14,221 nt of DNA, from assembly GCA_052168235.1 (NCBI GenBank), contig JBQLZK010000110.1, forward strand, positions 1-14,221, in the 5' to 3' direction. The notes under the pieces are model-generated. The model was not told the origin of the DNA, searched no databases, and saw only the letters and a program-made list of their open reading frames with translations. The translations under genes were made by a program, and so were the position numbers. This DNA comes from Thainema sp. GTDB taxonomy: Bacteria; Cyanobacteriota; Cyanobacteriia; Phormidesmidales; Phormidesmidaceae. This document shows positions 879 to 14,221 of the stretch, in pieces. Within the stretch, counting starts at the first letter, position 1. Every line of letters begins with the position of its first letter.

Positions 879-2699
879 ATGTCATCGCTGAATTCATCCC
901 CCACCAAGGAAGATTTTGATAATACCTGCTGGCAAAGCGTGATAAACAGTAGTGAGCGCAAAGATTGTTTAATATATGATCGTGCTTTCTGGAAGAAATC
1001 AAAAGAAGCGCAGGAAGCTGGAAATGTTACAGAACAAACTGTTTTTGAGATTCTGGCAGTTATAACTGGCGCTGCAATCAAACCGGAGTCAACAGACGAA
1101 CATTTTGCTGAATGTTTCAAAAACCTTACAGACGAGCAGCTAAATTTTCTCGCTGAGATCGTGTTCAACATTTCAGATGCTGAACTTCAAGCACGAATAG
1201 CAGACATTCTTTGGGTTAGGCAGCGTGATTATCGCATGGCTCAGTTGGCTATTCCCGCTTACTTACAATCTGCAAGCATCCTGGAAAATCCTGATCATTG
1301 GACTGATTGTATTCAGCGAATAGAACGGGCGCTACGATTAGCACACAAAATCAAACACCAGCCTGAACTCGTTTTTGCTCATATAGAATCAGTTCTTGAT
1401 CGCTACCAAGGAGAAGACTCTCGATGGCTATCTGTAAAGCTGATGGAGCTATTACAGAAGCATCGATTTGGAAAACCAACCAAATATACAGCCCTTTCTG
1501 AAAAAGCAGCAACCCTAGCTCAATCAAACTCCAACTGGCGTAGGGCAAGAGCACTCTGGGACATTAAAGCTAAATGGCATCGTATGGAGCAAAATTACGA
1601 AGAGGAGCTAGCTGCTTCAACGTTGGCTGCCGAGACTTATGTCAAAGAGGCTGAAGAAGCCCTTATGAGAGCCTCTCCGAGTTATTTAGTGGCATCAGAT
1701 TTTCTACAAAGAGCGGTAGAGGCTTTCAAAAGTATTCGAGGAACAAGAGAGCAAACTATCCATGCGAAAGCAAGAGCAGAGGAGATTCATACACTTCTTT
1801 TGCAGTATCAGGAGGAAGCCCGAAATGAGATGATTACCAACTCTCACGAGATAGATATTAGTGATTTAGTAGAAAAGGCTAAAGATCATATAAGAGGAAA
1901 AGGCTTCCGAGAAGCACTATTTGCCTTGGTTCTTTTGGGTGCTCCTACTAATACTTCTCAACTGAGACAACAAGTACAACAACAAGCTAACGAGTTCATT
2001 GCATCTCAACTTTTTCCTGTTGTGATGATGAATCAAATGGGCAAAGTTGTTGCTCGTCAACCAGGTTCTGTACTTTCCAATAATCCTGAAGAAGCAGAAG
2101 CGGCAACTCGCTTTGAGATGTGTCGGAACGCCATTTTTCACTACAGCGTACAAGCTCAAGCGTATATTGAACCTGCCAGATATCAATTTAATCTAGAACA
2201 TGGGGCACAACTTGATGATTTTCTTCCAATCGTTTCGCATACCCCTTTCGTTCCACCTGACCGTAGATACCTCTTTGTAAAGGGGCTGTATGCCGGACTG
2301 ACTGGAGATTTCTTTACATCTACCCATATTCTGATTCCCCAGATCGAAAATTCTGTTCGCTACATCATGTGGCGCAGAGGCATAATTACTTCTGGATTGG
2401 ATGATAGCGGGATTCAAAATGAGCATGATTTGAACCGTACTCTCTATCGTTCAGAAATAACTTCCATTTTCGATGAAGACACGTTGTTTGATTTGAAATG
2501 CTTACTGGTTGAACATGCAGGTAGTAATTTAAGAAACCGTATGGCTCATGGTCTAATTAGCGACGGTGAGTTCATGAGTCCACTAATGTCATATCTCTGG
2601 TGGTTCACATTAAGACTTTGTTGCTTGCCTATTTTGATGCCTCAGCAGCCAGTTGAGCAATCCGATACAGATCCTGATACAGGTAACGATGGTGAATGA
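879..2699 (+). CDS. DUF4209-like protein with helical N-terminus and C-terminal HEPN motif (putative RNase, conflict-system candidate)
   Basis: 606 aa. The C-terminal region has HILIPQIENSVR and GSNLRNRMAHG (R-x4-H). The N-terminus has LQARIADILW, typical of the large DUF4209 proteins. The gene is AT-richer than panB and has no HIP1. Confidence 0.8.
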   Translation: MSSLNSSPTKEDFDNTCWQSVINSSERKDCLIYDRAFWKKSKEAQEAGNVTEQTVFEILAVITGAAIKPESTDEHFAECFKNLTDEQLNFLAEIVFNISDAELQARIADILWVRQRDYRMAQLAIPAYLQSASILENPDHWTDCIQRIERALRLAHKIKHQPELVFAHIESVLDRYQGEDSRWLSVKLMELLQKHRFGKPTKYTALSEKAATLAQSNSNWRRARALWDIKAKWHRMEQNYEEELAASTLAAETYVKEAEEALMRASPSYLVASDFLQRAVEAFKSIRGTREQTIHAKARAEEIHTLLLQYQEEARNEMITNSHEIDISDLVEKAKDHIRGKGFREALFALVLLGAPTNTSQLRQQVQQQANEFIASQLFPVVMMNQMGKVVARQPGSVLSNNPEEAEAATRFEMCRNAIFHYSVQAQAYIEPARYQFNLEHGAQLDDFLPIVSHTPFVPPDRRYLFVKGLYAGLTGDFFTSTHILIPQIENSVRYIMWRRGIITSGLDDSGIQNEHDLNRTLYRSEITSIFDEDTLFDLKCLLVEHAGSNLRNRMAHGLISDGEFMSPLMSYLWWFTLRLCCLPILMPQQPVEQSDTDPDTGNDGE

Positions 2700-2715
2700 A
2701 GTGCGATCGCACTTC
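2698..2715. repeat. Extended HIP1 palindrome GAAGTGCGATCGCACTTC (18-bp perfect)
   Basis: Read directly. It overlaps the TGA stop of 879..2699; the HIP1 core is at 2703-2710. Confidence 0.95.
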
Positions 2716-2741
2716 CCACACTTTCCCTACCTGCCCATTCG

Positions 2742-2818
2742 GTTTCCCTATCGCATTCCATTCAAGCGATTCATGTCGTCTCAGGGATCGGTTTGATACG
2801 ATCAAGACGGAGGGAAAC
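2742..2818 (+). promoter_or_regulatory. Structured panB leader (candidate cis-regulatory RNA, possibly pan-motif-like)
   Basis: Nested pairings: GTTTCCCT(2742-2749)/AGGGAAAC(2811-2818), CGTCT(2777-2781)/AGACG(2805-2809) and GATCG(2786-2790)/CGATC(2799-2803). They cover the SD-like GGAGGG (2809-2814) before ATG 2824. Confidence 0.45.
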
Positions 2819-2823
2819 AAGCC

Positions 2824-3645
2824 ATGAGAGACGCAGCATTTTTACAGGCCAAGAAGCAGCGCGGCGAGAAAATTACGGCGCTGACCTGCTACGACTATCC
2901 CACTGCCGTGTTAGAAGAGCAGGCCGGGATTGACGTTCTGTTTGTCGGCGACAGCGTTGGCACCAACATTCTGGGCTACGACGATGAAACCCAGGTCACG
3001 CTGGACGACATTACTCATCATCTGAAAGCCGTTCGACGCGGCGCACCGGAATCCTACATTCTGGCCGACTTGCCCTACGCCACCTACGAAACGCCGGAGC
3101 AAGCCCTGACCAACGCTCAGCATTTGATGCAGAATGGGGCAGATATCATCAAGTTTGAGGGCAATCGCACCGACATCGCGACGCATTTGATCCAGAACGG
3201 CATTCCAGTCTGCGGGCATTTGGGACTACAGCCCCAAACCCATTTGAAGAAGGCAGTGCAGGGCAAGACCTTCGAACAGGCGAAGGCCATCGTTGAAGAT
3301 GCTCAGCGGCTAGAGCAAACAGGTATTCAGTTACTTGTTCTAGAGCTAGTGCCCGAAGAAGTGGCCAAGCTGATCACTGAAACGCTACAGATTCCCACGA
3401 TTGGCATCGGAGCCGGACGCTACACGGATGGCCAAGTGCTGATTGTGAATGACATTCTGGGCATTACGCCGAGGAAGCTACGTCTCGCTAAGCGCTACCT
3501 CAGCTATGGTGAAACAACCCTAGCCGCCATGCAGCGCTATCAGAAAGATGTGGCTGAACAGTGGTTTCCGTCCGAAGACAACACGCGCCACATGCCCACC
3601 GAGGAGCTAGAGCTGTTCATCAACTGGGTGCGATCGCACTTCTGA
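2824..3645 (+). CDS. panB: 3-methyl-2-oxobutanoate hydroxymethyltransferase
   Basis: 273 aa with PanB motifs LTCYDY, VGDS, DLPY, KFEG, GHLGLQPQ, LELVP and IPTIGIGAG..TDGQVL. Confidence 0.96.
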   Translation: MRDAAFLQAKKQRGEKITALTCYDYPTAVLEEQAGIDVLFVGDSVGTNILGYDDETQVTLDDITHHLKAVRRGAPESYILADLPYATYETPEQALTNAQHLMQNGADIIKFEGNRTDIATHLIQNGIPVCGHLGLQPQTHLKKAVQGKTFEQAKAIVEDAQRLEQTGIQLLVLELVPEEVAKLITETLQIPTIGIGAGRYTDGQVLIVNDILGITPRKLRLAKRYLSYGETTLAAMQRYQKDVAEQWFPSEDNTRHMPTEELELFINWVRSHF

Positions 3646-3918
3646 ATACTCGCGTAGATACTCACGCATCAGGCGCGGCCAAATCAGCAGAAAGAAGCCC
3701 ATCCAGACGCCGACGGGCAGTGCTACCAGCAGCGTCAGCCAGCGCCAATGGAACACCCACCAGCTCCCGCTAATCAGCGTTACGCCCGTCAGCGCAATTG
3801 ACCAGGGCTGACACCACCAAGGCTTATAGTGCCAGGGATTCAGCGAGTCAATCTCTGGCGCAAGTTCTTCTGGCATGAGTTCGGGTGGTTGTGAATCGGG
3901 TGAAGGAGTAACGGCCAT
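3607..3918 (-). CDS. Small cyanobacterial membrane protein (DUF6737-like)
   Basis: PWHYKPWWCQPWSIALTG followed by two hydrophobic segments. It overlaps the panB 3' end convergently by 39 nt. Confidence 0.8.
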   Translation of the reverse strand: MAVTPSPDSQPPELMPEELAPEIDSLNPWHYKPWWCQPWSIALTGVTLISGSWWVFHWRWLTLLVALPVGVWMGFFLLIWPRLMREYLREYSEVRSHPVDEQL

Positions 3919-3925
3919 TCGCGAC

Positions 3926-4180
3926 CTACACCTGCCACTTCAGGACGGATGCCTCGACGCCTTGTTCGCGCTTGATTTTGGCGTCGTTTTCAAACCAGGC
4001 AATGATCTGCTCGGTCGTCAGTTCTTCCACGGGCGTATCCAGGTCGTTGGCGATGTACTTAAGCAGCTTGTGCGTAGACAGGGTCAAGCGGGTTAAAAAT
4101 TTTTCAGGCGAGGCCATCAGCGCAGCGTCAACTTGCGCGGATTCTTCGGGAGTCAGAAATTGAGCAGTTTGATCTAACAT
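3926..4180 (-). CDS. Conserved cyanobacterial hypothetical protein (84 aa)
   Basis: FLTPEESAQVDAALM.SPEKFLTRLT...IIAWFE.D.K..REQG....LKW is recognisable as a cyanobacterial family. ATG at 4180 is preferred over the longer ORF start at 4204. It ends 7 nt before the DUF6737-like gene, so the two are probably an operon. Confidence 0.75.
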   Translation of the reverse strand: MLDQTAQFLTPEESAQVDAALMASPEKFLTRLTLSTHKLLKYIANDLDTPVEELTTEQIIAWFENDAKIKREQGVEASVLKWQV

Positions 4181-4262
4181 CGTACGGTTAAGGGTACAAC
4201 TCAAGCTTCATTTCTATGATAAAGGAGGCGAAGGAGCAGGGGAGAGGGGAAGAAAGGGGAAT

Positions 4263-4300
4263 AGTGCGATCGCACTTTTGATTTCCCAAAGCGCGATCAC
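4263..4300. repeat. HIP1 doublet (AGTGCGATCGCACT plus degenerate GCGATCAC)
   Basis: Exact core at 4266-4273; one-mismatch copy at 4293-4300. Confidence 0.85.
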
Positions 4301-4318
4301 AGTTCTAGTTTCCAACCA

Positions 4319-4588
4319 TCACGACACAACGTAGCGGGTTAGAATTCGCAGGACTTCGCCTTCGACGGGTGAGGGCAGGGGCGGACTCCATTCGTGGATT
4401 TCGGCAAAGCCGAGCCGATGCAGCCGCAGGACGATGTCTTCAACACCTTGGGGGATGCCGCAGACGAGCAGACGGACGGGCTGTTTGCCTGTGGGGGCGT
4501 TGGGAATGGGTGTTTTGAGCAGTTCTGGCACGGAAATCGGCGCAGCAGAACTAGCGGGAGGGTGTTCCCGCAGCAAAGTGGCTATCAT
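4319..4588 (-). CDS. Small conserved cyanobacterial hypothetical protein (start at 4588 or 4618)
   Basis: PVRLLVCG.PQGV...V..LH.LGFAE..EWSPPLP....GEV..IL is the pattern of a family often multicopy in filamentous cyanobacteria. Function unknown. Confidence 0.75.
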   Translation of the reverse strand: MIATLLREHPPASSAAPISVPELLKTPIPNAPTGKQPVRLLVCGIPQGVEDIVLRLHRLGFAEIHEWSPPLPSPVEGEVLRILTRYVVS

Positions 4589-4618
4589 AATAGTTACCAA
4601 ACGAATAAATGAACTCAT

Positions 4619-4659
4619 CGCGATCGCACTTTAGGTTTGGAAACGGAAGTGCGATCGCG
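4619..4659 (-). promoter_or_regulatory. HIP1-armed hairpin in the 5' leader of the 4319..4588 gene
   Basis: 13-bp inverted arms CGCGATCGCACTT (4619-4631) / AAGTGCGATCGCG (4647-4659). The 15-nt centre contains GTTT-GG-AAAC. A minus-strand TATACT (-10-like) lies at 4678-4683. Confidence 0.55.
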
Positions 4660-4806
4660 TTTTTGTTGATGACGTTGAGTATAAACCGAATTTACTATTT
4701 GCGCTACCGCAGCAGTCTATTTAACTATCGCACCAGTCCATTCAGGCGCAGCGAAGTAATCTGAGTGATAGCATCTGCCTTACAGTCTGGTGGTTAGGCA
4801 GTTTTT

Positions 4807-5019
4807 GTGGTGATCCAGTGGCGATTGGCAGTCGTAATGGCTGAGCGCAACATTAGTAATAAAGAGTTAGCCGCTCTAACTGGAATGAATCCTCGCTCGA
4901 TTTCCAGACTAAAAGTGCGTCGCCAATTTACCCGCATTGATGAAGCAACACTCAACGCTCTCTGCAAAGCACTGAACTGCCAGCCAGGAGATCTAATGGT
5001 GTACGAAGCGGATAAGTGA
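4807..5019 (+). CDS. XRE/Cro-C1 family HTH transcriptional regulator (HTH_26-like)
   Basis: 70 aa: WRLAVVMAERNISNKELAALTG....SISRL...ID..TL..LCKALNCQPGDL. GTG start. Confidence 0.92.
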   Translation: MVIQWRLAVVMAERNISNKELAALTGMNPRSISRLKVRRQFTRIDEATLNALCKALNCQPGDLMVYEADK

Positions 5020-5103
5020 AAAAGCTAGAAGATATTAAGATCTCAAGGGACAAACTTAAGATAATTCTCAGTATTGTTTTCTAAATACCACCAGCAGTCA
5101 TCA

Positions 5104-5834
5104 TTAAGGATTGAGCTGATTTACAATCGGGTTTATATTAATCACTGCTGCAATCAGCTTAAAACAATATTGTTGCTCACATCCAGTTGGAGTAAACGGC
5201 TCTCCCAAACTGATGGTGAATCGAAATCTATAAGATTTAGTTCACTAATAACCTCATCTGAAGAATAGCTTCCCGCTGGCAATTGAGCCTGATCCATTTG
5301 CGATTTCCATTTGGGATCAGTAATGCTGAAATTATATTGGATATTATTGAATGTAAAGATAGATCTATATGTTTTTCTGCTCAAATATTCTTGAACTACC
5401 CAATTGATATCTTGAGGTTTCAGATAAAGAAGTGAGCATTGAGCAGGATTTTGCTGTAATAATTTATATTCAATTCGATCTGATGAATTACCCAAGATTT
5501 CACGTAGAGCCATACTTCTATCAAGTTCTGGTTTGAGAACCTTCTTCAACATTGGAAAATCTGAATGGCCAACAAACTGCCACTTCTTCCGTACAATAAT
5601 CCAATTTTCTGGCTGATGGCACCTTGGTCTATGCTCCGAACACTCAATTTCCAAAATATCAAAGAGTTGGGGTTCAGCACCAGTGTCAAGAATGTAGTCG
5701 TTTGGATGTAGCGTACCGCTAGAGTCAGTAGATACAGGTCTTAACCAACCTGATCCATCCGTTTTGAGTCCTGCAATACAACGACCGTTATTTTTATAAG
5801 AATTAGCAAGACAAATAATTTCAAAAGTCGGCAT
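5104..5834 (-). pseudogene. Dual OB-fold (DuOB-like) protein, frameshifted near its C-terminus
   Basis: The N-terminus IICLANSYK..GRCIAG...WLRPVS...HQPENW...ITDP is in the 5154..5834 frame. The expected C-terminus FTISLGEPF...YCFKLIAAVI is in another frame (5220 down to TAA at 5104-5106). Confidence 0.78.
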
Positions 5835-5873
5835 GTTCAGCTTTCCAGCTATTAGCGGAAGTAAACTGATTAG

Positions 5874-6323
5874 TTAAAGGTGATGAACTTTAATTGCCGT
5901 GTCAAGCTTTTGCTGCAAATATTCGGCAACTAAACGACGATGACAATGATGGGGCTTTGCTTCACTACATAACAGACACCCACCATCTAAAAAATCAGGA
6001 GAAACCTTGTTTTCAATTTTTCGATCTACAATCAAAGTATTAAACTTATTTTCGTAATCCTCCCAGCTAATTCTCTTTTTCTTGTAGTCATCCAAAATAT
6101 CTTTGGTTGGAGCTAAGTCTAAAATATGAATATAGTCAATATTATCAATAGCCTTCAGGAAATACTCTAAATCAGCTCTTTTTGCAAATCCTGATAATTG
6201 GGATACGTTATTTAGGCGAGTATCAATAATCCGTTTAACACCTGCTTTTTTAAGAGTTTCAAAGAACTTTTGAGCGCTCTTTTGAGTGAAGCCTATTGTG
6301 AACAAATTGATCTGACTCTTCAT
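5874..6323 (-). CDS. DUF488 family protein
   Basis: LFTIGFTQKSA..FF, IDTRLNN.SQL.GFAK..DL and LLCSE..PHHCHR. Start at ATG 6323 or 6329 after AAGGAAG; the ORF-track start at 6359 is probably too long. Confidence 0.92.
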   Translation of the reverse strand: MKSQINLFTIGFTQKSAQKFFETLKKAGVKRIIDTRLNNVSQLSGFAKRADLEYFLKAIDNIDYIHILDLAPTKDILDDYKKKRISWEDYENKFNTLIVDRKIENKVSPDFLDGGCLLCSEAKPHHCHRRLVAEYLQQKLDTAIKVHHL

Positions 6324-6960
6324 GTTCATTACTTCCTTTTTCCACATAAGCAATCTCATTACCCTGAAGTTTATACGCTTTTCTCAGGCATTCTTCCCGT
6401 GTTGGCAAACCATCTTGGGAAAATAGAGAAAGTTGAGCTTGCTGAGCCTCTGAAAACTCTGTAAAACCATGCTTGAGAAGCATTCTTTCTTCCAAATGCT
6501 CATGAGATTCTAAATCGCCATTTTTTAATATGTGGTGTATGGATATGTCAAGATGGCGTAAATGCTGGCAAACCAAAATTGCTCTGTGACAGGTCAATGG
6601 ATCTTTTTCTGCACACATTAGCGAAATCTTATGTTTTTTCAAACCTGTTTGAACTCGCTGAATTCCTTCATGAAACGCATCGGTAGCAGCAATTCTCTCA
6701 TATACTGCTTTGCCACCGATATAGCAATCTTGGTTGCTAGGTCTTGCGCCTAGCTCCCGTCCCAAAAAAACATATTGAATTTTTTCTTGGGCAAGAAGTT
6801 TCTGTAGGGATGTTTGATTGAACTGTGACAGGAATCGGCTGTAGGGATGTGAACGTACATCAGCAACAGCAGTTACTCCATACTTCTGAAGAAGAGAGAT
6901 AAAATCATTTATATCGTGATTAGAGTGACCAATACTGAACAACTCTATACTGCTCCTCAT
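6259..6960 (-). CDS. DUF488 family protein (long type)
   Basis: LFSIGHSNH, ADVRSHPYSR, YVFLGRELGARP and LMCAEKDPLTCHR. Confidence 0.92.
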   Translation of the reverse strand: MRSSIELFSIGHSNHDINDFISLLQKYGVTAVADVRSHPYSRFLSQFNQTSLQKLLAQEKIQYVFLGRELGARPSNQDCYIGGKAVYERIAATDAFHEGIQRVQTGLKKHKISLMCAEKDPLTCHRAILVCQHLRHLDISIHHILKNGDLESHEHLEERMLLKHGFTEFSEAQQAQLSLFSQDGLPTREECLRKAYKLQGNEIAYVEKGSNEHEESDQFVHNRLHSKERSKVL

Positions 6961-7069
6961 CTTTGACCTCGTAATGCAATTTTATCTTGCCTTTCACTTT
7001 CTATTGTAGTAGACATGAACTATTTGCACGAGTCGAATCTAGCCCCCGGATGCGATTGTGAGGTTGCTG

Positions 7070-7285
7070 TAGCGTAATCGGATGCGCCTCAGACACCAAC
7101 GCCAACCCACTGAGCAAACTGCGGAGATAGTTGCTCACCTTACGAATTCGCGACGCATGAACTGGCCCTTCTGGACTCACTTCGACAATATCTCCCGCTA
7201 GCAGCTCCACCCGACGATTTTGCAAGATTCCTGCTGCAATCATCTGGTGATAATCATCAACTGACCATTTTATGAGCGTAGTCAT
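7070..7285 (-). pseudogene. Truncated Uma2/DUF820 family gene (N-terminal 72 codons)
   Basis: KWSVDDYHQMI.AGIL..RRVELL.GDIVE.SPEGP.H...EAHPITL is a Uma2 N-terminus. The expected SEPEPD/EV catalytic part is absent, and the frame runs into unrelated sequence to a stop at 7001. Confidence 0.85.
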
Positions 7286-7378
7286 CTTGAGAACTCCTCA
7301 CGGCCTGCTGCATCACTATTTTACTGAACTGAATGGCTGTAGCTTGTGCAGAACCTCATCATCCTAATGTGGCAGAAA

Positions 7379-7759
7379 TCAACGTACAGTCACCAAGACA
7401 GCCGTGCCGAAGCCGCTGTTGTGAGCATCCATATAGGGAACAGCCTCCGACCATTCATATTCAATTTCGAGCGTATTGTGCTTATACGTGACTGTGCCCT
7501 CACCGCTGATTACCGCATCTGAACTTGCGTCCGGAATATTGAGCACCCGAACAAGCGCATCTTTGAGTTGATGATGCAGCTGGGTGTCAGCCAGGGGACG
7601 GTGATCCAGATAGAACTGGATCAACCGTCCACCCCCAATCCAATCTGGGCCAATCTGACACCGCACAACCCACTTGACCCACAAGTCTGAAGACTCAATC
7701 TGGTCTAACAGCGATTGGAGATCAGCAATAACAACAGCGTCAGACTTAGAATCTTTCAT
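7379..7759 (-). CDS. Hypothetical protein (126 aa)
   Basis: Clean ORF with AAGGAA upstream on the minus strand. No motif recognised. Confidence 0.7.
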   Translation of the reverse strand: MKDSKSDAVVIADLQSLLDQIESSDLWVKWVVRCQIGPDWIGGGRLIQFYLDHRPLADTQLHHQLKDALVRVLNIPDASSDAVISGEGTVTYKHNTLEIEYEWSEAVPYMDAHNSGFGTAVLVTVR

Positions 7760-7786
7760 CAGTTCCTTACAAAGTTTGTTAGAAGC

Positions 7787-7828
7787 GCGATCGCACGTTT
7801 AGTGAGTAGTTGAGAATGAGATCGCACT
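7787..7828. repeat. HIP1 doublet
   Basis: GCGATCGC at 7787-7794 and degenerate GAGATCGC(ACT) at 7818-7825. Confidence 0.85.
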
Positions 7829-7861
7829 ATGAAGAACGTGAGTAGTAGGTTTTGGCTACAT

Positions 7862-8728
7862 TTACAAAATAGACTTTCTATATCTTTCTGTCGTCCATAA
7901 ATCTATATTCCAAAACTCCTCGACTTCGTATTTGCCATCGACCCATCGTATTCCCCAGTGATAATACTGCACAGGTTCTACTGCATCGTTGAGTCCAATC
8001 GCTATGCAGCGACCAACGATATCAGCCTTTTCTCCTCTCTTATAGTATTTTTCAGCATTACATGCACTTGCAGACGGTATTCTGAAGCCCATATCTTGTT
8101 TAACTACTTGTATGAATGAATTAGCTAATTGCTCAAGCTTCTCGCTGACTTCCCATTTATATGTGTACTCTAGCTCTTCCATAGCACAACCAAGCATCAT
8201 GGCAGTATATAGCGCTGCCGTTTCTCTGAGAGCAGCAACTACATAGGGCGAACCAAAAGCACAGGCCATACCAACAAGGGAGCAGTCATCATCGGAACAC
8301 AGAGCTTTGGCCTCTTCTATCACCTTATTGAGGTTCCAATCTGGCGCAAGCTTCTCCAAAGATTTTGCAACTACATCTTTGCGTCTTGGCAATAGGCCAG
8401 ATCTATCTTTATCGGGCTGTCCAAAAACTTTTGATCCACAGACTCTTGATAAACGTTCTAAGTTATTCTTGGATCTAATAACTTTGCTTTTACTGCTGCT
8501 ATCAATATCTTGCAATCTCCTCACAAGCTTAAAATATTCTGTCAACTCTGGCGTTTCATGATAATATCCCTCTACGGGACAGTCTTTTGGTTCGATGCCC
8601 AATTCTGATGCAATATTTCTAGCGCATTCTAATAGCTCATTGGACTCAATAAATTTCATTTTATCTCTGAAAAAGTCATCCAGAGCAAGCAGAAAGATAT
8701 CGTCCGTAACAACGCAAATATCAACCAT
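7862..8728 (-). CDS. Hypothetical protein (start at 8728 or 8659), weak DUF3160-like motifs
   Basis: Long, AT-rich ORF with no HIP1. Segments EGYYHETPELTEYF and ALRETAALY stand out. Confidence 0.72.
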   Translation of the reverse strand: MVDICVVTDDIFLLALDDFFRDKMKFIESNELLECARNIASELGIEPKDCPVEGYYHETPELTEYFKLVRRLQDIDSSSKSKVIRSKNNLERLSRVCGSKVFGQPDKDRSGLLPRRKDVVAKSLEKLAPDWNLNKVIEEAKALCSDDDCSLVGMACAFGSPYVVAALRETAALYTAMMLGCAMEELEYTYKWEVSEKLEQLANSFIQVVKQDMGFRIPSASACNAEKYYKRGEKADIVGRCIAIGLNDAVEPVQYYHWGIRWVDGKYEVEEFWNIDLWTTERYRKSIL

Positions 8729-8754
8729 ACTGTCACCTATTCATAAGTAGTGAG

Positions 8755-8803
8755 AAAAGCGCGATCGCACTTTTAATGAACAGTTGATGAATGTGCGATC
8801 GCA
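8755..8803. repeat. HIP1 doublet
   Basis: AAAAGCGCGATCGCACTTTT (core 8761-8768) and GTGCGATCGCA (core 8795-8802). The radical SAM stop codon (8773-8775) lies between the two cores. Confidence 0.9.
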
Positions 8804-10161
8804 TCTACTGCATCAACTGTTTCGCGAATCGATGAATAGCGATCGGTTCCCTCAAAGCTCATCGGTTCATTCTTGCTCAGCGCTTTCCAGCCGTAGAACA
8901 GATTCATGATGCCGCACATCATCATCGCTCCTCCGCGTAAGGTGAAGAGAGAGCGGCCAATTCTCCGCAAGACTGAGCGCAAACTAAACGCCGATCGCCA
9001 CAAGTCCCGATGGGCCTGCAACAGCTCGGCGGCGGTCATGTGATTGGGCAGGAACGTCACGTTATAGCCGTTGTAAAACTCCCAGCCGAGATGCGATCGC
9101 AACCGACCCGCATCCTGCATCTTTGCATAGGAGCGCGTGCCTTTGAAGGGCGTAAGAATGCTCAAAAACGGTACATCAACGCCAATTTCCTCCAGTTGAT
9201 TTGCCATATCCCGAATGCTCTCCGGCGTATCACCATCCAAACCAGAGATGAACCCAGCCATTACGCCAATGCCGCGATCGTGCAGCTTTTGAATTTTGCT
9301 GCGGTACTCATTCACTTTATTTTGCCGCTTCCCCGCGTCGATTAGCGACTCCAGACCAAAGGACTCAATGCCAAAGAAAATGCCGATGCAGCCCGAATCC
9401 CGCATCAGATCCAGCAGTTCGTCATCCAGGGTGATATCCATACTGGCTTGGGTCAACCACCACTTCCGCAGGGGAATCATCTGGCGCAGCAGTTCCTTGA
9501 TATAGGGTCGATTGGCCGTTAGGTTATCATCCCAAAACCAGACCAACTTGCGCTGCCACCACCACTTGAAATCGTTGTAGCGGATGTCGTTGAGCACCGC
9601 TTCAATCGGACGAGTACGAAAGCCTGGATTCAGGGTGGGAACGGTGCAAAAGGAGCAGGAAAACGGACAGCCGCGCGTCGCTTGCACCACTCGCCGCACA
9701 GCGTATTTAGGCGAGAGCAGGTCGTAGCGCGGTGTGGGAATATCGGTCAGCGGCAGGGCTTCGCCAACGTAGCGGGGCTGCAACCGATTCTGTTCAATAT
9801 CCTGAAACATCTGCGCCCAGACCGACTCGCCTTCGCCAATCACAACGCTATCGACAAACCGCAGCGCTTCCTCTGGCGCAAAGGTGACGTGTGGGCCACC
9901 CGCAATGGTGATCTTGCCGCGATCGCGATATTCAGTCGCCAAACGATAGGCTTCTGGAGCAAAGCCACTGAAGAACGAGAGCACGACTACATCCGCATCG
10001 CTATCGAGGTTTACGGGCTCAACCTGCTGGTGAATCACTCGAACGGTATGCTGAGCCGGGGTGAGTGCTGCCAGGTGAATCCCGGTCAGCGGCGGCACAA
10101 AATCAGCCTCATGGCCATTGCGATAGCGCTGAATATAGACGATGACAATATCAATTTTCAT
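8773..10161 (-). CDS. B12-binding-domain radical SAM protein (462 aa)
   Basis: [11 protein letters not shown] (CxxxCxxC), N-terminal GGPHVT..PEEA and VVIGEGE, plus DDNL, GIES and GLDGDT. The likely start is ATG 10161 (MKIDIVIV) after GGTGGAAAG, not 10350. Confidence 0.92.
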
Positions 10162-10429
10162 AAGCTTTCCACCAACCGCACAGTATGCGTTGCTGGTTTT
10201 AAGTATGAATTGAGATCCACAATCCCGAACCGTAATGGATACAGTTCTTAGTTCTTTAAAGGCTGGCGGTAGAGAAAGTGCGGAGAGGTGCGATCGCAAC
10301 CGACTTGCGAAAAGATTTCTTACTGTAGTTTGTTCAACATTTCGCATCACCTACAAAAAATAGGGTTGGAAGCGGACGGTATTTTTTGCTTACCAAGTAC
10401 ATACGATTTTTTTGGCTTTATATTGAATC

Positions 10430-11440
10430 TTAACTCGTTGATATATAGTTGTCGCCAAATTCAAAATCTAATAGCTTCGTTGAATCTGAACCTTCAAAGC
10501 AAGACTCAATAAATGATATGAAGGTATTAGACGGTGTCGCTATACCGTAGCCAATTAAATCAGCCCGACCTTCAGCTCCTGCTGGTATTTGTGCAACAAC
10601 ACCTAACGCGAAACCGTCCTTTCCGACTATTGGTCCACCACTGTTACCACCCTTTATTCTTGCTGTAAACAAAAAATAAGTTTGTTTATCTAGATAAGAC
10701 TGCTCTAAACCCGTTAGCTGTCCAACTGTAGAACTCAAATAGCCAGATATATGTGCTTTTTCGGCAACTAATACGCTTTCAAATCCAGGAATTGGAGGAT
10801 AACCCATCGTAATGATATCTTCTAAAATATTTCCTTCTCTAAATAAGAAACCAGGAACACCATCGAAAGGGTTTTTCGTGTTAAATTTCAAAAAAGCAAG
10901 ATCTACGTTTTCTTCCAACGAAACATGAATGGCTGCCAAATTCTCTTCATCGAAACTCCAGCCTGGTATATATATTTTTCTCATTCCTTTTATACAATGT
11001 GCTGCTGTCGTAAAACCGCGAGTTGTAAAACTGCGATCAGACACTAGAAAGCCAGTTCCAATATCTTCTGTGCCATCTTCTCTTTCAACAATGATTGGAA
11101 AAACAGATTTTGAAAAGTAGTTGCGAATATAAGGAAATCCAAAGCAAAGAAATTCATAAGTTCCATATTCAGCAAGGTTATCATCAAATCTATAGCAATA
11201 ATAGTTATTGTTCAAAGGAGGAGCACCTCTCAACTCTGAACCAGCAGGAACTAAAATATTTTCCGCTTCCAATCTCCTGCATATCTGGTACACATCAAAA
11301 AGGCATTGAATTTTTTGATTATCATTTCCGATGAAGTCTCCAATCGATTTTGGACGTATGATTCCCTGAGCATCTCTTTTTCCATTGGCTATGAGAAAGT
11401 ATCTTGCAATATCAGTTGCAGTTAATTGCAAATTTTCCAT
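10430..11440 (-). CDS. Trypsin-like (S1) serine protease with an uncharacterised ~100-aa N-terminal domain
   Basis: GTGFLV, TAAHC (His), VDLAFL (Asp), GYP and GGNSGGP (Ser). No signal peptide or PDZ domain is visible. AT-rich, no HIP1. Confidence 0.9.
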   Translation of the reverse strand: MENLQLTATDIARYFLIANGKRDAQGIIRPKSIGDFIGNDNQKIQCLFDVYQICRRLEAENILVPAGSELRGAPPLNNNYYCYRFDDNLAEYGTYEFLCFGFPYIRNYFSKSVFPIIVEREDGTEDIGTGFLVSDRSFTTRGFTTAAHCIKGMRKIYIPGWSFDEENLAAIHVSLEENVDLAFLKFNTKNPFDGVPGFLFREGNILEDIITMGYPPIPGFESVLVAEKAHISGYLSSTVGQLTGLEQSYLDKQTYFLFTARIKGGNSGGPIVGKDGFALGVVAQIPAGAEGRADLIGYGIATPSNTFISFIESCFEGSDSTKLLDFEFGDNYISTS

Positions 11441-11682
11441 GATTTGTTATTCAAACACACATGCAAAGCTACATTGAACAAGTAATACCCTTATATTTTG
11501 CAAGTATAGGACAAAAATCATAGGCCAAACATAATAAGCTAGATCCCAATTTTCAGAAATTAGGCAGATTTTTTGCTGTTTAGCTCTCCATTTTCAGGAT
11601 GTTATTCATCAAAAATGCTAGATAGCATTCCAGATGCCGGAGTCATCCGACATTTTTCACGGTGTTGATAAGCAGATGGTGG

Positions 11683-11762
11683 AGGTACGATCGCAGGAGG
11701 TTTGTGAAATGAGAGTGCGATCGCATTTTTGATGAGTCGGTGGGAAAAGTGCGATCGTACCT
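11683..11762. repeat. HIP1 triplet with mutually inverted outer copies
   Basis: ACGATCGC at 11687-11694, GCGATCGC at 11717-11724 and GCGATCGT at 11751-11758. AGGTACGATCGCA (11683-11695) is the exact reverse complement of TGCGATCGTACCT (11750-11762). Confidence 0.9.
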
Positions 11763-11789
11763 AGCTCGTTAACCATCGAAGGAGTTACT

Positions 11790-12995
11790 GTGAATGGCAT
11801 GTTACTCCCCGATTTGATTCTTGCTGCCAGAGATCAGTCGTATCGTCGCGATCGGCTGCTGCTGCTTGCGTTTGAGCCTCAATCGCAATACTACGTCGAG
11901 CTTGAGTCAATCCGTTTGCTCAATACCGAGAAATCTGCAGAACTGCAAATCCTGAAAATTGTCCGAGCACCAGAATCTATCATTGTTGCGACTCAGCCCC
12001 TGCCCGGCACTGACGGAGACAAGAGCTGCTACCTGATTCAGCTTGATTTAACCCTGGCTGAAATCAAACGCATCGCGTTCAATAGCCTCACCGCATTAGA
12101 AACCGATGGAGAACACATTTTCATATCGGCAGAAGGCGATTTTATTGTCCTGAGCCTTGATTTAACAATTTTGAGCCGAGTTGAACTACAGGTTACAGGA
12201 CTGGCCAAAAAAGATGCCCACGGTATAGTTGTCCATCAAAAAATTGCCTATCTTCTGGATAACATTTTTGTCCCTGTGTTTATTTTCAAATTTGATTGCT
12301 CCGATCCCAAAAACATTTACCTTTTGGATAAGCAAGAGTTTGATGCTAGCCAGCCACACCTGGATGCTCAGTGGATTGATGCCGCTGCCCAGCGCTGGTA
12401 CGTTTTAGTTGACAACAGCAACCGATTCATCTCTGGACAGCACCTTTACATCACTGAAGCGGCGAACCCGCTGGCTGAGATCAAATTTCACATGGTTCGT
12501 CAGGACACCGTGGAAATCTGGAACTATCTCAGCGATCGCACAGGTAATAAAATATTGGCCTCCACTCAGATGGTGCCACCGTGGGTTGTGGTTAAAGAAG
12601 GCACGGCGGCAAACCGATATCTTCCTGAAAAGCTTTACCTTGCTAAAGTGATCTGCGATCGCGAATTTGTCCGGATTGAGCCGTGGTTAGATTTGTATCC
12701 GCTCATTCTGGAAGGGGCAGCGGATGAAGCGCCAGTTTGGCATGACGACTTCAACAAGTTTCTAATTCACGCAGCAGGCAACCGTCTGATTCTAATTGCG
12801 TCCCGTCGCAATCGGCTAATCACGAAAGAAGAGTGGACTACCGCGACCCGTCGAGAAGAACAGATTACAGAATGGCTCAACGTTGATGAAGCCGTTCTGT
12901 TGGTCATCGACACTCAGAATCAGCCCCAAATTCTCCTGAACCAGCGTTTTGAAATTGATAATCAGACTATCCAAACATTTGCACTCAGGGCATGA
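11790..12995 (+). CDS. Hypothetical beta-rich protein, possibly a beta-propeller (LVIVD-like blade)
   Basis: 401 aa, with AGGAG before the GTG start. AHGIVVHQKIAYLLD...IFKFDCSDPKNI resembles an LVIVD-type repeat. The fold call is inference. Confidence 0.7.
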   Translation: MNGMLLPDLILAARDQSYRRDRLLLLAFEPQSQYYVELESIRLLNTEKSAELQILKIVRAPESIIVATQPLPGTDGDKSCYLIQLDLTLAEIKRIAFNSLTALETDGEHIFISAEGDFIVLSLDLTILSRVELQVTGLAKKDAHGIVVHQKIAYLLDNIFVPVFIFKFDCSDPKNIYLLDKQEFDASQPHLDAQWIDAAAQRWYVLVDNSNRFISGQHLYITEAANPLAEIKFHMVRQDTVEIWNYLSDRTGNKILASTQMVPPWVVVKEGTAANRYLPEKLYLAKVICDREFVRIEPWLDLYPLILEGAADEAPVWHDDFNKFLIHAAGNRLILIASRRNRLITKEEWTTATRREEQITEWLNVDEAVLLVIDTQNQPQILLNQRFEIDNQTIQTFALRA

Positions 12996-13023
12996 TGAAT
13001 GTACTCATATTTTCTATTAACCC

Positions 13024-13072
13024 CCGAACAGATAATTTGCCGCCGTATCGCGGCGGCAAATTATCTGTTCGG
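13024..13072. repeat. Perfect palindrome with 22-bp arms and 5-nt loop (REP/MITE-like, may act as a terminator)
   Basis: CCGAACAGATAATTTGCCGCCG-TATCG-CGGCGGCAAATTATCTGTTCGG, starting 28 nt after the stop at 12995. Confidence 0.92.
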
Positions 13073-13251
13073 ATTTAGTCTGGGTAGTGGTATTCAGGTG
13101 ATGATTTTGAGAACTGCCTTAGTCTGCAAGGTAGCAACAGATGCAAAATGTGGGTGTGCGAACTTGATGTAAAATTTACAGCTATCTCTTCCTGAAACGA
13201 ATAGTCTAAATAGTCATAATCTATCAACGCTAGCTGTGGATTCCGAGGGAT

Positions 13252-13872
13252 ATGTCCAAGGGTAAGGATTGGCTTGTTACAGAAACTGGGCAGTGCCAGC
13301 CCTGCCCGACTGCCCGCGAATGGGATCTGCTGGAAACACCCTACCGTTTCCATCGCTTCTTGACAGAGGTCGAAGATACCCTCAATCAAGCCACTACGGA
13401 GCATCAGTGTGATTGTTTTCCTGAACTACGCCGACTCGTGCGAAAACTGGTGCTGAATTCCTACTGGTTGCACACTCAACGCCCCGAACCTTCTCCCGGA
13501 ACGGGAACAGCTATCCTTAACCTCTACGATGAAATTGGCTATCCCTTAACCGTTCAAGTTGAAACTCATAAACCCGGTACCCAATCATCCATTCACAATC
13601 ATGGAACCTGGGGCATTGTGGCGATTTTGCAAGGGCAGGAACATAACAGGCTGTGGCAACGAACCCCCGAGCCTGAATGTCCTGACAAGGTCAGTCCAGT
13701 TGAAGAAAAAATTTTGGCAGTCGGAGATGTGATTAGTTTTACACCAGCCGCCATTCATTCAGTACAGGCAATCGGCGAAGAATGGTTGGTCACGTTCAAC
13801 CTATACGGCGAAACCCACAGCCAACAGCGATTTGAATTCGATCCAATAACCTACCGAGCAAAGCATTACTGA
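13252..13872 (+). CDS. Cupin, cysteine-dioxygenase-like metal-dependent enzyme
   Basis: SSIHNHGTWG (HxH), GD...FTP.AIHSV (third His) and TFNLYG. Confidence 0.88.
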   Translation: MSKGKDWLVTETGQCQPCPTAREWDLLETPYRFHRFLTEVEDTLNQATTEHQCDCFPELRRLVRKLVLNSYWLHTQRPEPSPGTGTAILNLYDEIGYPLTVQVETHKPGTQSSIHNHGTWGIVAILQGQEHNRLWQRTPEPECPDKVSPVEEKILAVGDVISFTPAAIHSVQAIGEEWLVTFNLYGETHSQQRFEFDPITYRAKHY

Positions 13873-13881
13873 ATTGAATTT

Positions 13882-14169
13882 ATGATGCTGTATTGTCCTG
13901 GAGACGAGTGCCCACTGCGCCGCGATTGCTATCGTCATACTCAACCCTCACCGGGGCGGGACAGCTTTGCGTCTGTGCCTTACGATCCTGTGACCCAAAC
14001 CTGCGAATGGTTCACGTCCAATATTCCCAGTGCAGCGTTAATTCGTGAGACAGCCTATTATATTTGGCTACATCGTGGCCGTCCAGACAACTGCGCTGAG
14101 GAGCATTGGCAAGACGCGTATTTGAGTTTATGCCAGAACATGGGGCGAAATATCCTGGAACAGGACTAG
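13882..14169 (+). CDS. Cys-rich N-terminal domain fused to a DUF2934-like domain
   Basis: Cys at positions 5, 10, 16 and 41 (CPGDECPLRRDCYR...TCEWF), followed by IRETAYYIW..RGRP...AEEHW.DA. It starts 9 nt after the cupin stop. Confidence 0.78.
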   Translation: MMLYCPGDECPLRRDCYRHTQPSPGRDSFASVPYDPVTQTCEWFTSNIPSAALIRETAYYIWLHRGRPDNCAEEHWQDAYLSLCQNMGRNILEQD

Positions 14170-14221
14170 TGGTGCGTCAACAAATAGATGACGGCCAGCT
14201 AAAGTAAGAAAAACACCTCTT
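14167..14221 (+). mobile_element. End of an IS/MITE-like element (right copy)
   Basis: TAGTGGTGCGTCAACAAATAGATGACGGCCAGCTAAAG... is the reverse complement of 1-54. It begins at TA and has an internal CGTCA-N9-TGACG dyad. Confidence 0.75.

Follow-up and report, generated by a model that had tools for sequence, protein, structure and literature searches.

The 14,221 bp stretch of Thainema sp. DNA analysed here (the window) is the complete contig C110 of its genome, and on balance it appears to be a flexible island rich in candidate defence genes. Its modules would turn over by ordinary recombination, with a minority of joints using the palindromic octamer GCGATCGC (highly iterated palindrome 1, HIP1). 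An earlier note on this DNA had proposed recombination at HIP1, and this survives in a limited form: HIP1 is an occasional crossover point, of which the locus is an unusually clear example, and not the basis of a dedicated cassette array. The integrase-free HIP1 cassette array envisaged in the same note is unsupported, and only one of 60 clean insertions or deletions (indels) between related genomes has HIP1 at both ends.

Four public metagenome runs were aligned to the window. The best match (run X5, record 24) is 6556 bp long, about 93% identical and collinear, and contigs of run X3 agree with it. In none of the sequencing runs were more than 7% of the sampled words present, and uncovered parts of the window carry no evidential weight. 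Compared with the X5 relative, the window is divided as follows:
2719–4274: present in the X5 relative
4275–4317: 710 other bases instead
4318–5013: present
5014–7378 (the PDC-M45 module and a Uma2 fragment): 1559 other bases instead
7379–7813: present
7814–11682 (3869 bp, three genes): missing, with 7813 joined straight to 11683 and no filler
11683–11757: present
11758–14040: 59 bases instead (joint 11757 to 14041)
14041–14149: present

The conserved backbone of the locus is made up of panB, a DUF6737 gene, small open reading frames (ORFs), an XRE regulator and ORF 7379–7759. The four cassettes that had been counted between 7379 and 11440 resolve, in the X5 comparison, into one backbone gene (7379–7759) and a single 3.9 kb indel carrying three genes. 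The main reference for breakpoint comparisons was a genome of the same genus (G001, 89% nucleotide identity), which in synteny shares only 2719–4225 (89% identity, on its contig C120) and 4556–4680. The intervening 4225–4555 is absent from G001, a deletion of about 330 bp for which the nearest HIP1 is 41 nt away at one gap end and 64 nt away at the other. A search of the metagenome contigs with PanB gave a best amino acid identity of 65%, and none of the 80 loci was used.

Three small elements lie at the joints between shared and unshared DNA:
2699–2714, no strand: 16 nt perfect palindrome around HIP1 2703–2710, where the conserved panB block starts on its left side
4266–4273, no strand: exact HIP1; X5/X3 homology stops at 4274 (loose ends at 4274 and 4278)
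11683–11757, no strand: 75 nt backbone linker that the X5/X3 relative retains, with a large gap on either side

At the 2699–2714 palindrome, similarity to G001 and to three metagenome relatives comes to an end. The G001 homology begins exactly at HIP1 2703, which both genomes keep, while their left flanks are unrelated; it ends about 27 nt past HIP1 4651. In X5/X3, and likewise in a contig of run X1 with 98% identity, HIP1 directly abuts 2719, and the sequences to the left all differ. The linker begins 4 nt 5′ of ACGATCGC (11687), contains the exact HIP1 11717 and ends in GCGATCGT (11751–11758). Each end of the 3869 bp indel has a one-mismatch HIP1 4 nt to its right (7818 and 11687) and lies outside that copy, and no target-site duplication was present at the ends. 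Neither joint of the PDC-M45 swap (5013 and 7379) is near HIP1.

Fourteen local breakpoints were scored (2703/2719, 4225, 4274, 4318, 4556, 4685, 5013, 7379, 7813, 11595, 11683/11695, 11757, 14041 and 14149). The expectation that breakpoints in relatives would coincide with HIP1 was borne out for five of them, which lie within 8 nt of a copy (exact at 2703 and 4266, one-mismatch at 7818, 11687 and 11751), and failed for the PDC-M45 swap and the 330 bp deletion of G001. Positions no more than 8 nt from a HIP1 copy, exact or with one mismatch, make up 13.8% of the intergenic bases of the window, giving a binomial P of about 0.02–0.04.

A 100 nt non-coding segment upstream of the protease gene (11595–11695) is 75% identical to positions 10242–10341 of G001 contig C127, where it lies upstream of an unrelated ORF of 169 aa. 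The homology to contig C127 ends there on an exact HIP1, the counterpart of which in the window is ACGATCGC at 11687. The segment, perhaps a portable promoter, leader or small RNA, has no Rfam match and a single copy in the window's own genome.

A contig of run X1, covered at a depth of only two, joins 4630 back to 4276 within a 13 nt repeat of HIP1 plus ACTTT; the shorter side of this joint measures 38 nt. Such a joint would mean a tandem copy or circle junction of a 354 bp unit that contains ORF 4319–4618. A loose end of X1 behind 2729, tried as a second partner of the PDC-S39 gene, is actually locus C14, with a look-alike palindrome of 32 nt. Because of this false lead, short matching pieces (19–54 nt, at 8755–8808 and 11713–11742) were given no weight.

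The association of HIP1 with breakpoints was then measured over 2.4 Mb of G001 aligned to the genome that contains the window (G000), split into two independent halves that took the first 60 kb of each of contigs C1–C20 and then of C21–C40, with HIP1 scored when centred in the last 12 nt of homology. HIP1 lies at 19 of 465 rearrangement ends, where 7.2 were expected (2.6-fold, P 2e-4), in support of recombination at HIP1; the two halves contributed 9/219 and 10/246. Indel-type ends gave 18/699 (11.0 expected, P 0.03), and non-structural alignment breaks, used as a control, 8/502 (8.8 expected). A measure that accepts HIP1 in either genome gave 15/219 rearrangement ends against 6.6 expected, and is fragile because 1 of 17 control windows likewise reached 15. 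More than 95% of rearrangement ends are away from HIP1. Among the first 576 ends, 25 (4.3%) have HIP1 within 15 bp, compared with 3.5% of shifted positions.

The signature of cassette insertion, with one site in the empty locus and two in the filled, was not found in this comparison. HIP1 comes within 20 bp of one or other end in only six of the 60 clean indels, which is about the chance level, and is present at both ends in one. Replacement ends near HIP1 number 13 of 232 (10.3 expected), with both ends involved in 1 of 116 replacements, and HIP1 lies in the overlap of 1 of 10 cleanly abutting non-collinear block pairs, a sample that is too small. HIP1 is about equally frequent in length-matched syntenic and breakpoint spacers, an outcome that the earlier note had itself named as refuting its proposal. 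From these counts, the hot-spot effect at rearrangements is real but small, and lacks a cassette-type insertion signature.

The backbone genes and their spacers are:
2824–3645, + strand: panB (Pfam)
3607–3918, − strand: DUF6737 gene (Pfam)
3926–4204, − strand: small ORF
4319–4618, − strand: ORF, also in X5 record 24
4807–5019, + strand: Cro/C1-type HTH gene (Pfam HTH_26, E 3e-19)
7379–7813, − strand: ORF 7379–7759 and the upstream spacer that carries HIP1 7787, both present in the X5/X3 relative

HIP1 3630 lies within the convergent overlap of panB and the DUF6737 gene. ORF 4319–4618 and the HTH gene are syntenic in two further genera, and the divergent spacer between them carries HIP1 4620 and 4651. 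ORF 7379–7759 matched no family in Pfam, PADLOC or further family profile searches.

The variable modules, listed together with the Uma2-family gene at 100–663, are:
100–663, + strand: Uma2-family putative endonuclease, PADLOC candidate PDC-S03 (Pfam PF05685, E 1.7e-37)
879–2699, + strand: DUF7380+DUF4209 gene, PADLOC candidate PDC-S39 (full length, E 1.1e-255; GC 0.42)
5154–5834, − strand: DuOB, PDC-M45 component A (PADLOC E 1.7e-33)
5874–6359, − strand: DUF488, PDC-M45 component C (PADLOC E 4.3e-67)
6259–6960, − strand: DUF488, PDC-M45 component B (PADLOC E 2.5e-73)
7001–7285, − strand: truncated Uma2-like ORF (Pfam E 1e-5, under the curated cut-off)
7862–8728, − strand: ORF within the 3869 bp indel, closest relatives in Planctomycetota
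8773–10161, − strand: B12-binding radical SAM gene (GC 0.54, three internal HIP1, no equivalog family)
10430–11440, − strand: trypsin-like protease gene within the 3869 bp indel (GC 0.37)
11790–14040, + strand: segment replaced by 59 bases in X5/X3, with ORF 11790–12995, ORF 13252–13872 and the start of a DUF2934 gene

Components A, C and B of the PDC-M45 module (5154–6960) are all adjacent and co-oriented, and the module is AT-rich and free of HIP1. The PDC-S39 gene has no DNA-level match in G001 and was never beside panB among the relatives examined. Closest to ORF 7862–8728 are Planctomycetota proteins (56% identity); it was found in none of 200 other sampled cyanobacterial genomes, and a search of genome contigs for closer relatives gave no match. 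The radical SAM gene is flanked by HIP1 8761 and 10290, and ORF 11790–12995 holds two HIP1. Two hallmarks of genomic or defence islands are therefore present, namely strain-variable content with atypical composition, and clustered candidate defence genes (PDC-S39, PDC-M45A/B/C and PDC-S03, all PADLOC candidates only). The third, a mobility gene or tRNA gene at the island border, was not found in the window: Pfam searches of its 17 ORFs, within the scope of this 14 kb contig alone, detected no recombinase, integrase or transposase family, and the window has no tRNA genes and no Rfam matches.

Two of these genes have notable relatives elsewhere. Uma2 matches number 41 in the genome, and the gene at 100–663 shows 77–80% DNA identity to genes of genomes from other families, a level above that of most of the window. 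In a genome from another family (G035), three short contigs or contig ends match the radical SAM gene at 79–82% DNA identity, and the gene is therefore multi-copy or assembly-breaking there. The copy on G035 contig C107 (79% identical) is without the HIP1 sites of the window gene.

For thirty years HIP1 has had no settled function, and roles in recombination or DNA uptake are actively debated. In the 205-contig genome (7.54 Mb, 50.0% GC), GCGATCGC has 8979 exact copies, or 1.19 per kb, the strong over-representation that is typical of HIP1. This load, together with the Uma2 and DUF6737 genes, points to a cyanobacterium. By a gene set of crude calls from ORFs and a codon score (5876 genes, 80% coding), its density is 1.24 per kb within genes and 1.00 per kb between them, with no spacer enrichment. 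The window (45.4% GC) has 14 exact copies (0.98 per kb), where shuffles of its sequence give 0.25; this is below the density of the genome, so the window is not HIP1-rich. Across the genome the octamer is preceded by T in 0.68–0.82 of cases and followed by A in 0.69–0.80, and A..TGCGATCGCA..T, with A/T-rich arms beyond, is the consensus of genic and intergenic copies alike. A lineage-specific extension of the octamer, which is a hallmark of HIP1, is thus present as the 10 nt core TGCGATCGCA. Since the extended form is the genome-wide consensus, extension per se does not mark junctions.

Palindromes extended by at least 6 nt on each side occur at 42 of 1478 intergenic HIP1 and 24 of 7501 genic HIP1, and a perfect 30 nt palindrome centred on HIP1 is found at about 13881–13912 of contig C14. 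No dispersed repeat or miniature inverted-repeat transposable element family was found at the junction spacers, and the commonest 10-mers following HIP1 have at most seven copies. When the window spacers were compared with the genome by BLAST as candidate repeat elements, they gave only palindrome matches of 20–32 nt, and this idea was rejected.

Within the window, 14 HIP1 positions had been listed at module junctions. Ten are exact (2703, 3630, 4266, 4620, 4651, 7787, 8761, 8795, 10290 and 11717) and the other four (4293, 7818, 11687 and 11751) are one-mismatch copies; exact copies at 9093, 9919, 12532 and 12655 were outside that list. The statement that the sites are mostly of extended form was too strong, as the full AGTGCGATCGCACT occurs only at 2703 and 4266, with GTGCGATCGCAC at three window sites and a one-sided extension (...ACTT or AAGT...) at six. 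The description of the modules was accurate: 879–2699, 5154–6960, 7862–8728 and 10430–11440 contain no exact HIP1, segments of about 0.35–0.42 GC do alternate with segments of 0.52–0.59, and the genes from 7379 to 11440 are co-oriented with HIP1 between them at 7787, 8761 and 10290. Site 10290 is intergenic only with the start of the radical SAM gene at 10161, which homology supports.

HIP1 occurs in 7 of the 11 intergenic spacers between 2698 and 11762, where length-matched genome frequencies predict 1.53 (P about 1e-4). Runs of 11 consecutive spacers with at least seven bearing HIP1 number 21 of 3891 across the genome, so the placement is locally unusual, in the top 0.5%; windows of this kind will be met often when many are scanned. 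Sites 2703, 3630, 4620 and 4651 are conserved in G001, and 4266, 7787 and 11717 are inside segments common to the window and the X5 relative. Most of the junction HIP1 thus lie in DNA shared with relatives, as backbone sites near points of module turnover.

Genes below 40% GC carry only 0.06 HIP1 per kb (9 sites in 142 kb), compared with 1.2–1.6 per kb in typical genes. Genes of cyanobacterial genomic islands that are poor in HIP1 and odd in composition were reportedly treated as recent imports by Elhai et al. in 2012. HIP1 sites repel one another across the genome, which fits the published quasi-periodicity. Distances between them are under-dispersed (coefficient of variation (CV) 0.95; 7.2% are below 100 bp, where 11.6% is expected). 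Between neighbours of normal GC, spacer density falls from 1.49 to 0.28 HIP1 per kb as the HIP1 density of the neighbours rises, and in a Poisson model the rate ratio for spacer HIP1 is 0.84 per flanking site (z −8.4). Even spacing therefore explains part of the local HIP1 excess. Spacers between two AT-rich genes show no residual excess in the Poisson model. Past the stop codons of AT-rich genes there are 1.65 HIP1 per kb within 150 bp, compared with about 0.65 before their starts. Extended forms are 2.6–4.2 times denser in spacers beside AT-rich genes, partly because these flanks are AT-rich.

Some observations sit uneasily with the view that HIP1 is used only occasionally. Counting G001, four genomes have four different left flanks at HIP1 2703, a pattern closer to repeated use of one site than to an occasional accident. 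The local clustering of five in 14 breakpoints exceeds the genome-wide rate of about 4% of rearrangement ends, and spacers between AT-rich and typical genes retain 1.4–1.5 times more HIP1 in the Poisson model after GC and spacing are included as covariates (z about 4.4). The positions of joints in metagenome contigs are those of the alignment tool, and gain or loss for each event is judged from composition only; both points also weigh against the view.

A stronger role for HIP1 can be drawn from the same data, in which extended HIP1 are preferred exchange sites of a nuclease or recombination pathway, possibly acting on methylated HIP1, and the flanks assort independently, so that modules are gained or swapped at these sites, as in the earlier proposal recast as a hot spot. 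This is consistent with the pivot at 2703 and its four left partners, with the pivot at 11687 (left side common to G001, right side to X5), with the end of X5 homology immediately past HIP1 4266, and with the low-depth X1 joint of 4630 to 4276 inside its 13 nt repeat. The 2.6-fold excess at rearrangement ends in both samples, the 2.6–4.2 times denser extended forms beside AT-rich genes, and a Chi-like rise in integration during transformation reported in a preprint (bioRxiv 10.1101/2024.09.10.611283) point the same way. We nevertheless regard it as rather unlikely. HIP1 at both ends is seen in only 1/60 clean indels and 1/116 replacements, replacement ends (13/232 vs 10.3 expected) and abutting junctions (1/10) show little, and over 95% of rearrangement ends are elsewhere. 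The largest local swap, that of PDC-M45, lacks HIP1 at both joints, the 3.9 kb indel ends 4 nt outside degenerate copies without a duplication, and the extended-form excess derives partly from AT-rich flanks. Doubtful to a similar degree is the opposite account, which gives HIP1 no part in recombination: mutation bias and selection for even spacing would let it build up fastest in unconstrained spacers beside HIP1-free genes, and homology would only seem to stop at HIP1 as the last conserved island of diverging spacers. The under-dispersed distances (CV 0.95; 7.2% vs 11.6% below 100 bp) and the rate ratio of 0.84 per flanking site (z −8.4) agree with it, as does the radical SAM gene, whose HIP1 sites are missing from the 79%-identical G035 copy and so were gained or lost in situ; PMC5861425 describes both selection on HIP1 and its conservation. 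Yet true rearrangement ends show an excess that is missing from non-structural breaks (8/502 vs 8.8), the 98%-identical X1 contig loses all similarity at HIP1 2703, and most junction HIP1 are older than the inserts, given that they also occur in relatives which lack these inserts.

That extended HIP1 hairpins act as weak two-way terminators or insulators after imported genes seems very improbable, even though a U-run follows the 8761 hairpin (−8.0 kcal/mol) right after the radical SAM stop, and RNA hairpins of −13.4 and −9.9 kcal/mol are predicted at 2703 and 4266. HIP1 is denser after AT-rich stops (1.65 per kb in 150 bp vs about 0.65 before starts), and convergent spacers have roughly double the density of extended forms found in divergent ones; plain HIP1, however, is equally dense whether spacers are convergent, tandem or divergent (1.10, 1.01 and 1.01 per kb), and typical genes have no excess past their stops. 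Hairpins at 7787 and 10290 are negligible, sites 4620, 4651 and 11717 are in promoter-side spacers, and terminator-like matches in the window (14) hardly differ from those in shuffles (13.3). Termination as a general role of HIP1 was accordingly rejected. Returning to crossover, it is quite unlikely that extended HIP1 are true hot spots that delimit exchangeable modules in the flexible islands of cyanobacteria, with 2703, 4266, 7818, 11687 and 11751 as pivots. Were this so, the left and right partners of the pivots would have been re-assorted several times independently, and the 2.6-fold excess of HIP1 at rearrangement ends would be a diluted trace of the same process.

The reading favoured here, a flexible island in which only a minority of joints use HIP1, would work as follows. 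The backbone would have the HIP1 load normal for the organism, with evenly spaced sites at about one per 800 bp and the 10 nt core TGCGATCGCA. Between its pieces would lie strain-specific modules, several of them AT-rich, probably imported recently from outside the phylum and not yet having gained HIP1. From the gene content, composition, positions of HIP1 and breakpoints, and measured rates, we infer that modules turn over by illegitimate or short-homology recombination, probably during natural transformation, and that HIP1 can serve as the microhomology. At the joints that fall on HIP1, a copy would be the crossover point, as in the published smtB excision. HIP1 with its palindromic extension of 10–16 nt is the commonest short repeat of the genome, and a minority of joints would use it for that reason.

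Foreign genes without HIP1 are already known from the literature, as is recombination between copies of HIP1. Scarcity of HIP1 was used as a sign of recent transfer by Delaye et al. 2011 (PMC3025956). In published islands of this type, AT-rich, HIP1-free genes adjoin native DNA that bears HIP1, as they do here; the passages of PMC3025956 that treat HIP1 scarcity as a detector place no HIP1 at island borders, unlike the case here. The smtB locus of Synechococcus PCC 6301 underwent a HIP1-flanked excision of 352 bp, and recombination between HIP1 copies has been proposed ever since, according to PMC13756078. Plasmid recombination in PCC 7002 is a further example, and the two cases are retold in PMC13756078 and PMC4390886. 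Site-specific and illegitimate recombination at HIP1 and extended HIPs are treated in PMC4390886, and selection, conservation and periodicity of HIP1 in PMC5861425. A preprint (bioRxiv 10.1101/2024.09.10.611283) links HIP1 to higher, Chi-like integration efficiency in transformation. A full-text search, the coverage of which excludes subscription journals, found no paper measuring HIP1 at synteny breakpoints.

In smtB-type recombination, short GCGATCGC copies lie at the segment ends, and here homology stops on HIP1 2703 and 4266; the X1 joint in the 13 nt HIP1 repeat that bounds a 354 bp unit is a further possible likeness. The known smtB-type cases are single laboratory events, whereas most joints here are outside HIP1, and at the clearest large indel the ends are next to degenerate HIP1 instead of inside exact copies. 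As in PADLOC defence islands, the locus has a full-length PDC-S39, a complete PDC-M45 and strain-variable content; it differs in that its systems are candidates by database name only, and in that no integrase, transposase or tRNA gene is present in the window. Chi sites and DNA uptake sequences offer another parallel, since an abundant 'self' word could bias recombination, which fits the modest HIP1 excess. The published evidence for an uptake or Chi role of HIP1 comes from plasmid transformation of model strains (bioRxiv 10.1101/2024.09.10.611283; PMC13756078).

Integron arrays (IntI, attI, attC) resemble the locus in having co-oriented unrelated genes with a palindromic site after each. Their attC sites are imperfect inverted repeats of about 55–140 nt at the 3′ end of each cassette. 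In contrast, the window has no integrase, its sites are 8–16 nt long and not attC-like, and the 'array' consists of a backbone gene and a three-gene indel without the empty/filled site signature. No attC-type repeats were found at the junctions, where the palindromes measure 8–16 nt and the spacers form no repeat family.

Other repeats occur on the contig. Its ends (1–54 and 14167–14220) are exact inverted copies of one another, and the word of about 50 nt at these ends also terminates contigs C195, C117 and C163 and is internal in C83 and C7. This word is a dispersed short repeat at which the assembly breaks, and the whole contig is therefore what lies between two inverted copies. Downstream of ORF 11790–12995 is a near-perfect hairpin of 47 nt (13025–13071; −44.4 kcal/mol, z −10), the core of which (13036–13060) has 96% copies on at least six other contigs, and a neighbouring word of 27–31 nt (13081–13111) is present on five contigs. 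Hairpin and word together (13025–13111) look like a dispersed palindrome family resembling repetitive extragenic palindromic (REP) elements, unrelated to HIP1.

For this one genus, HIP1 sharply separates native from imported DNA, is evenly spaced, and occurs at rearrangement breakpoints about 2.6 times as often as expected. As it accounts for a few per cent of breakpoints, this measure places an upper bound on how much of the flux of cyanobacterial genomes can be credited to HIP1.

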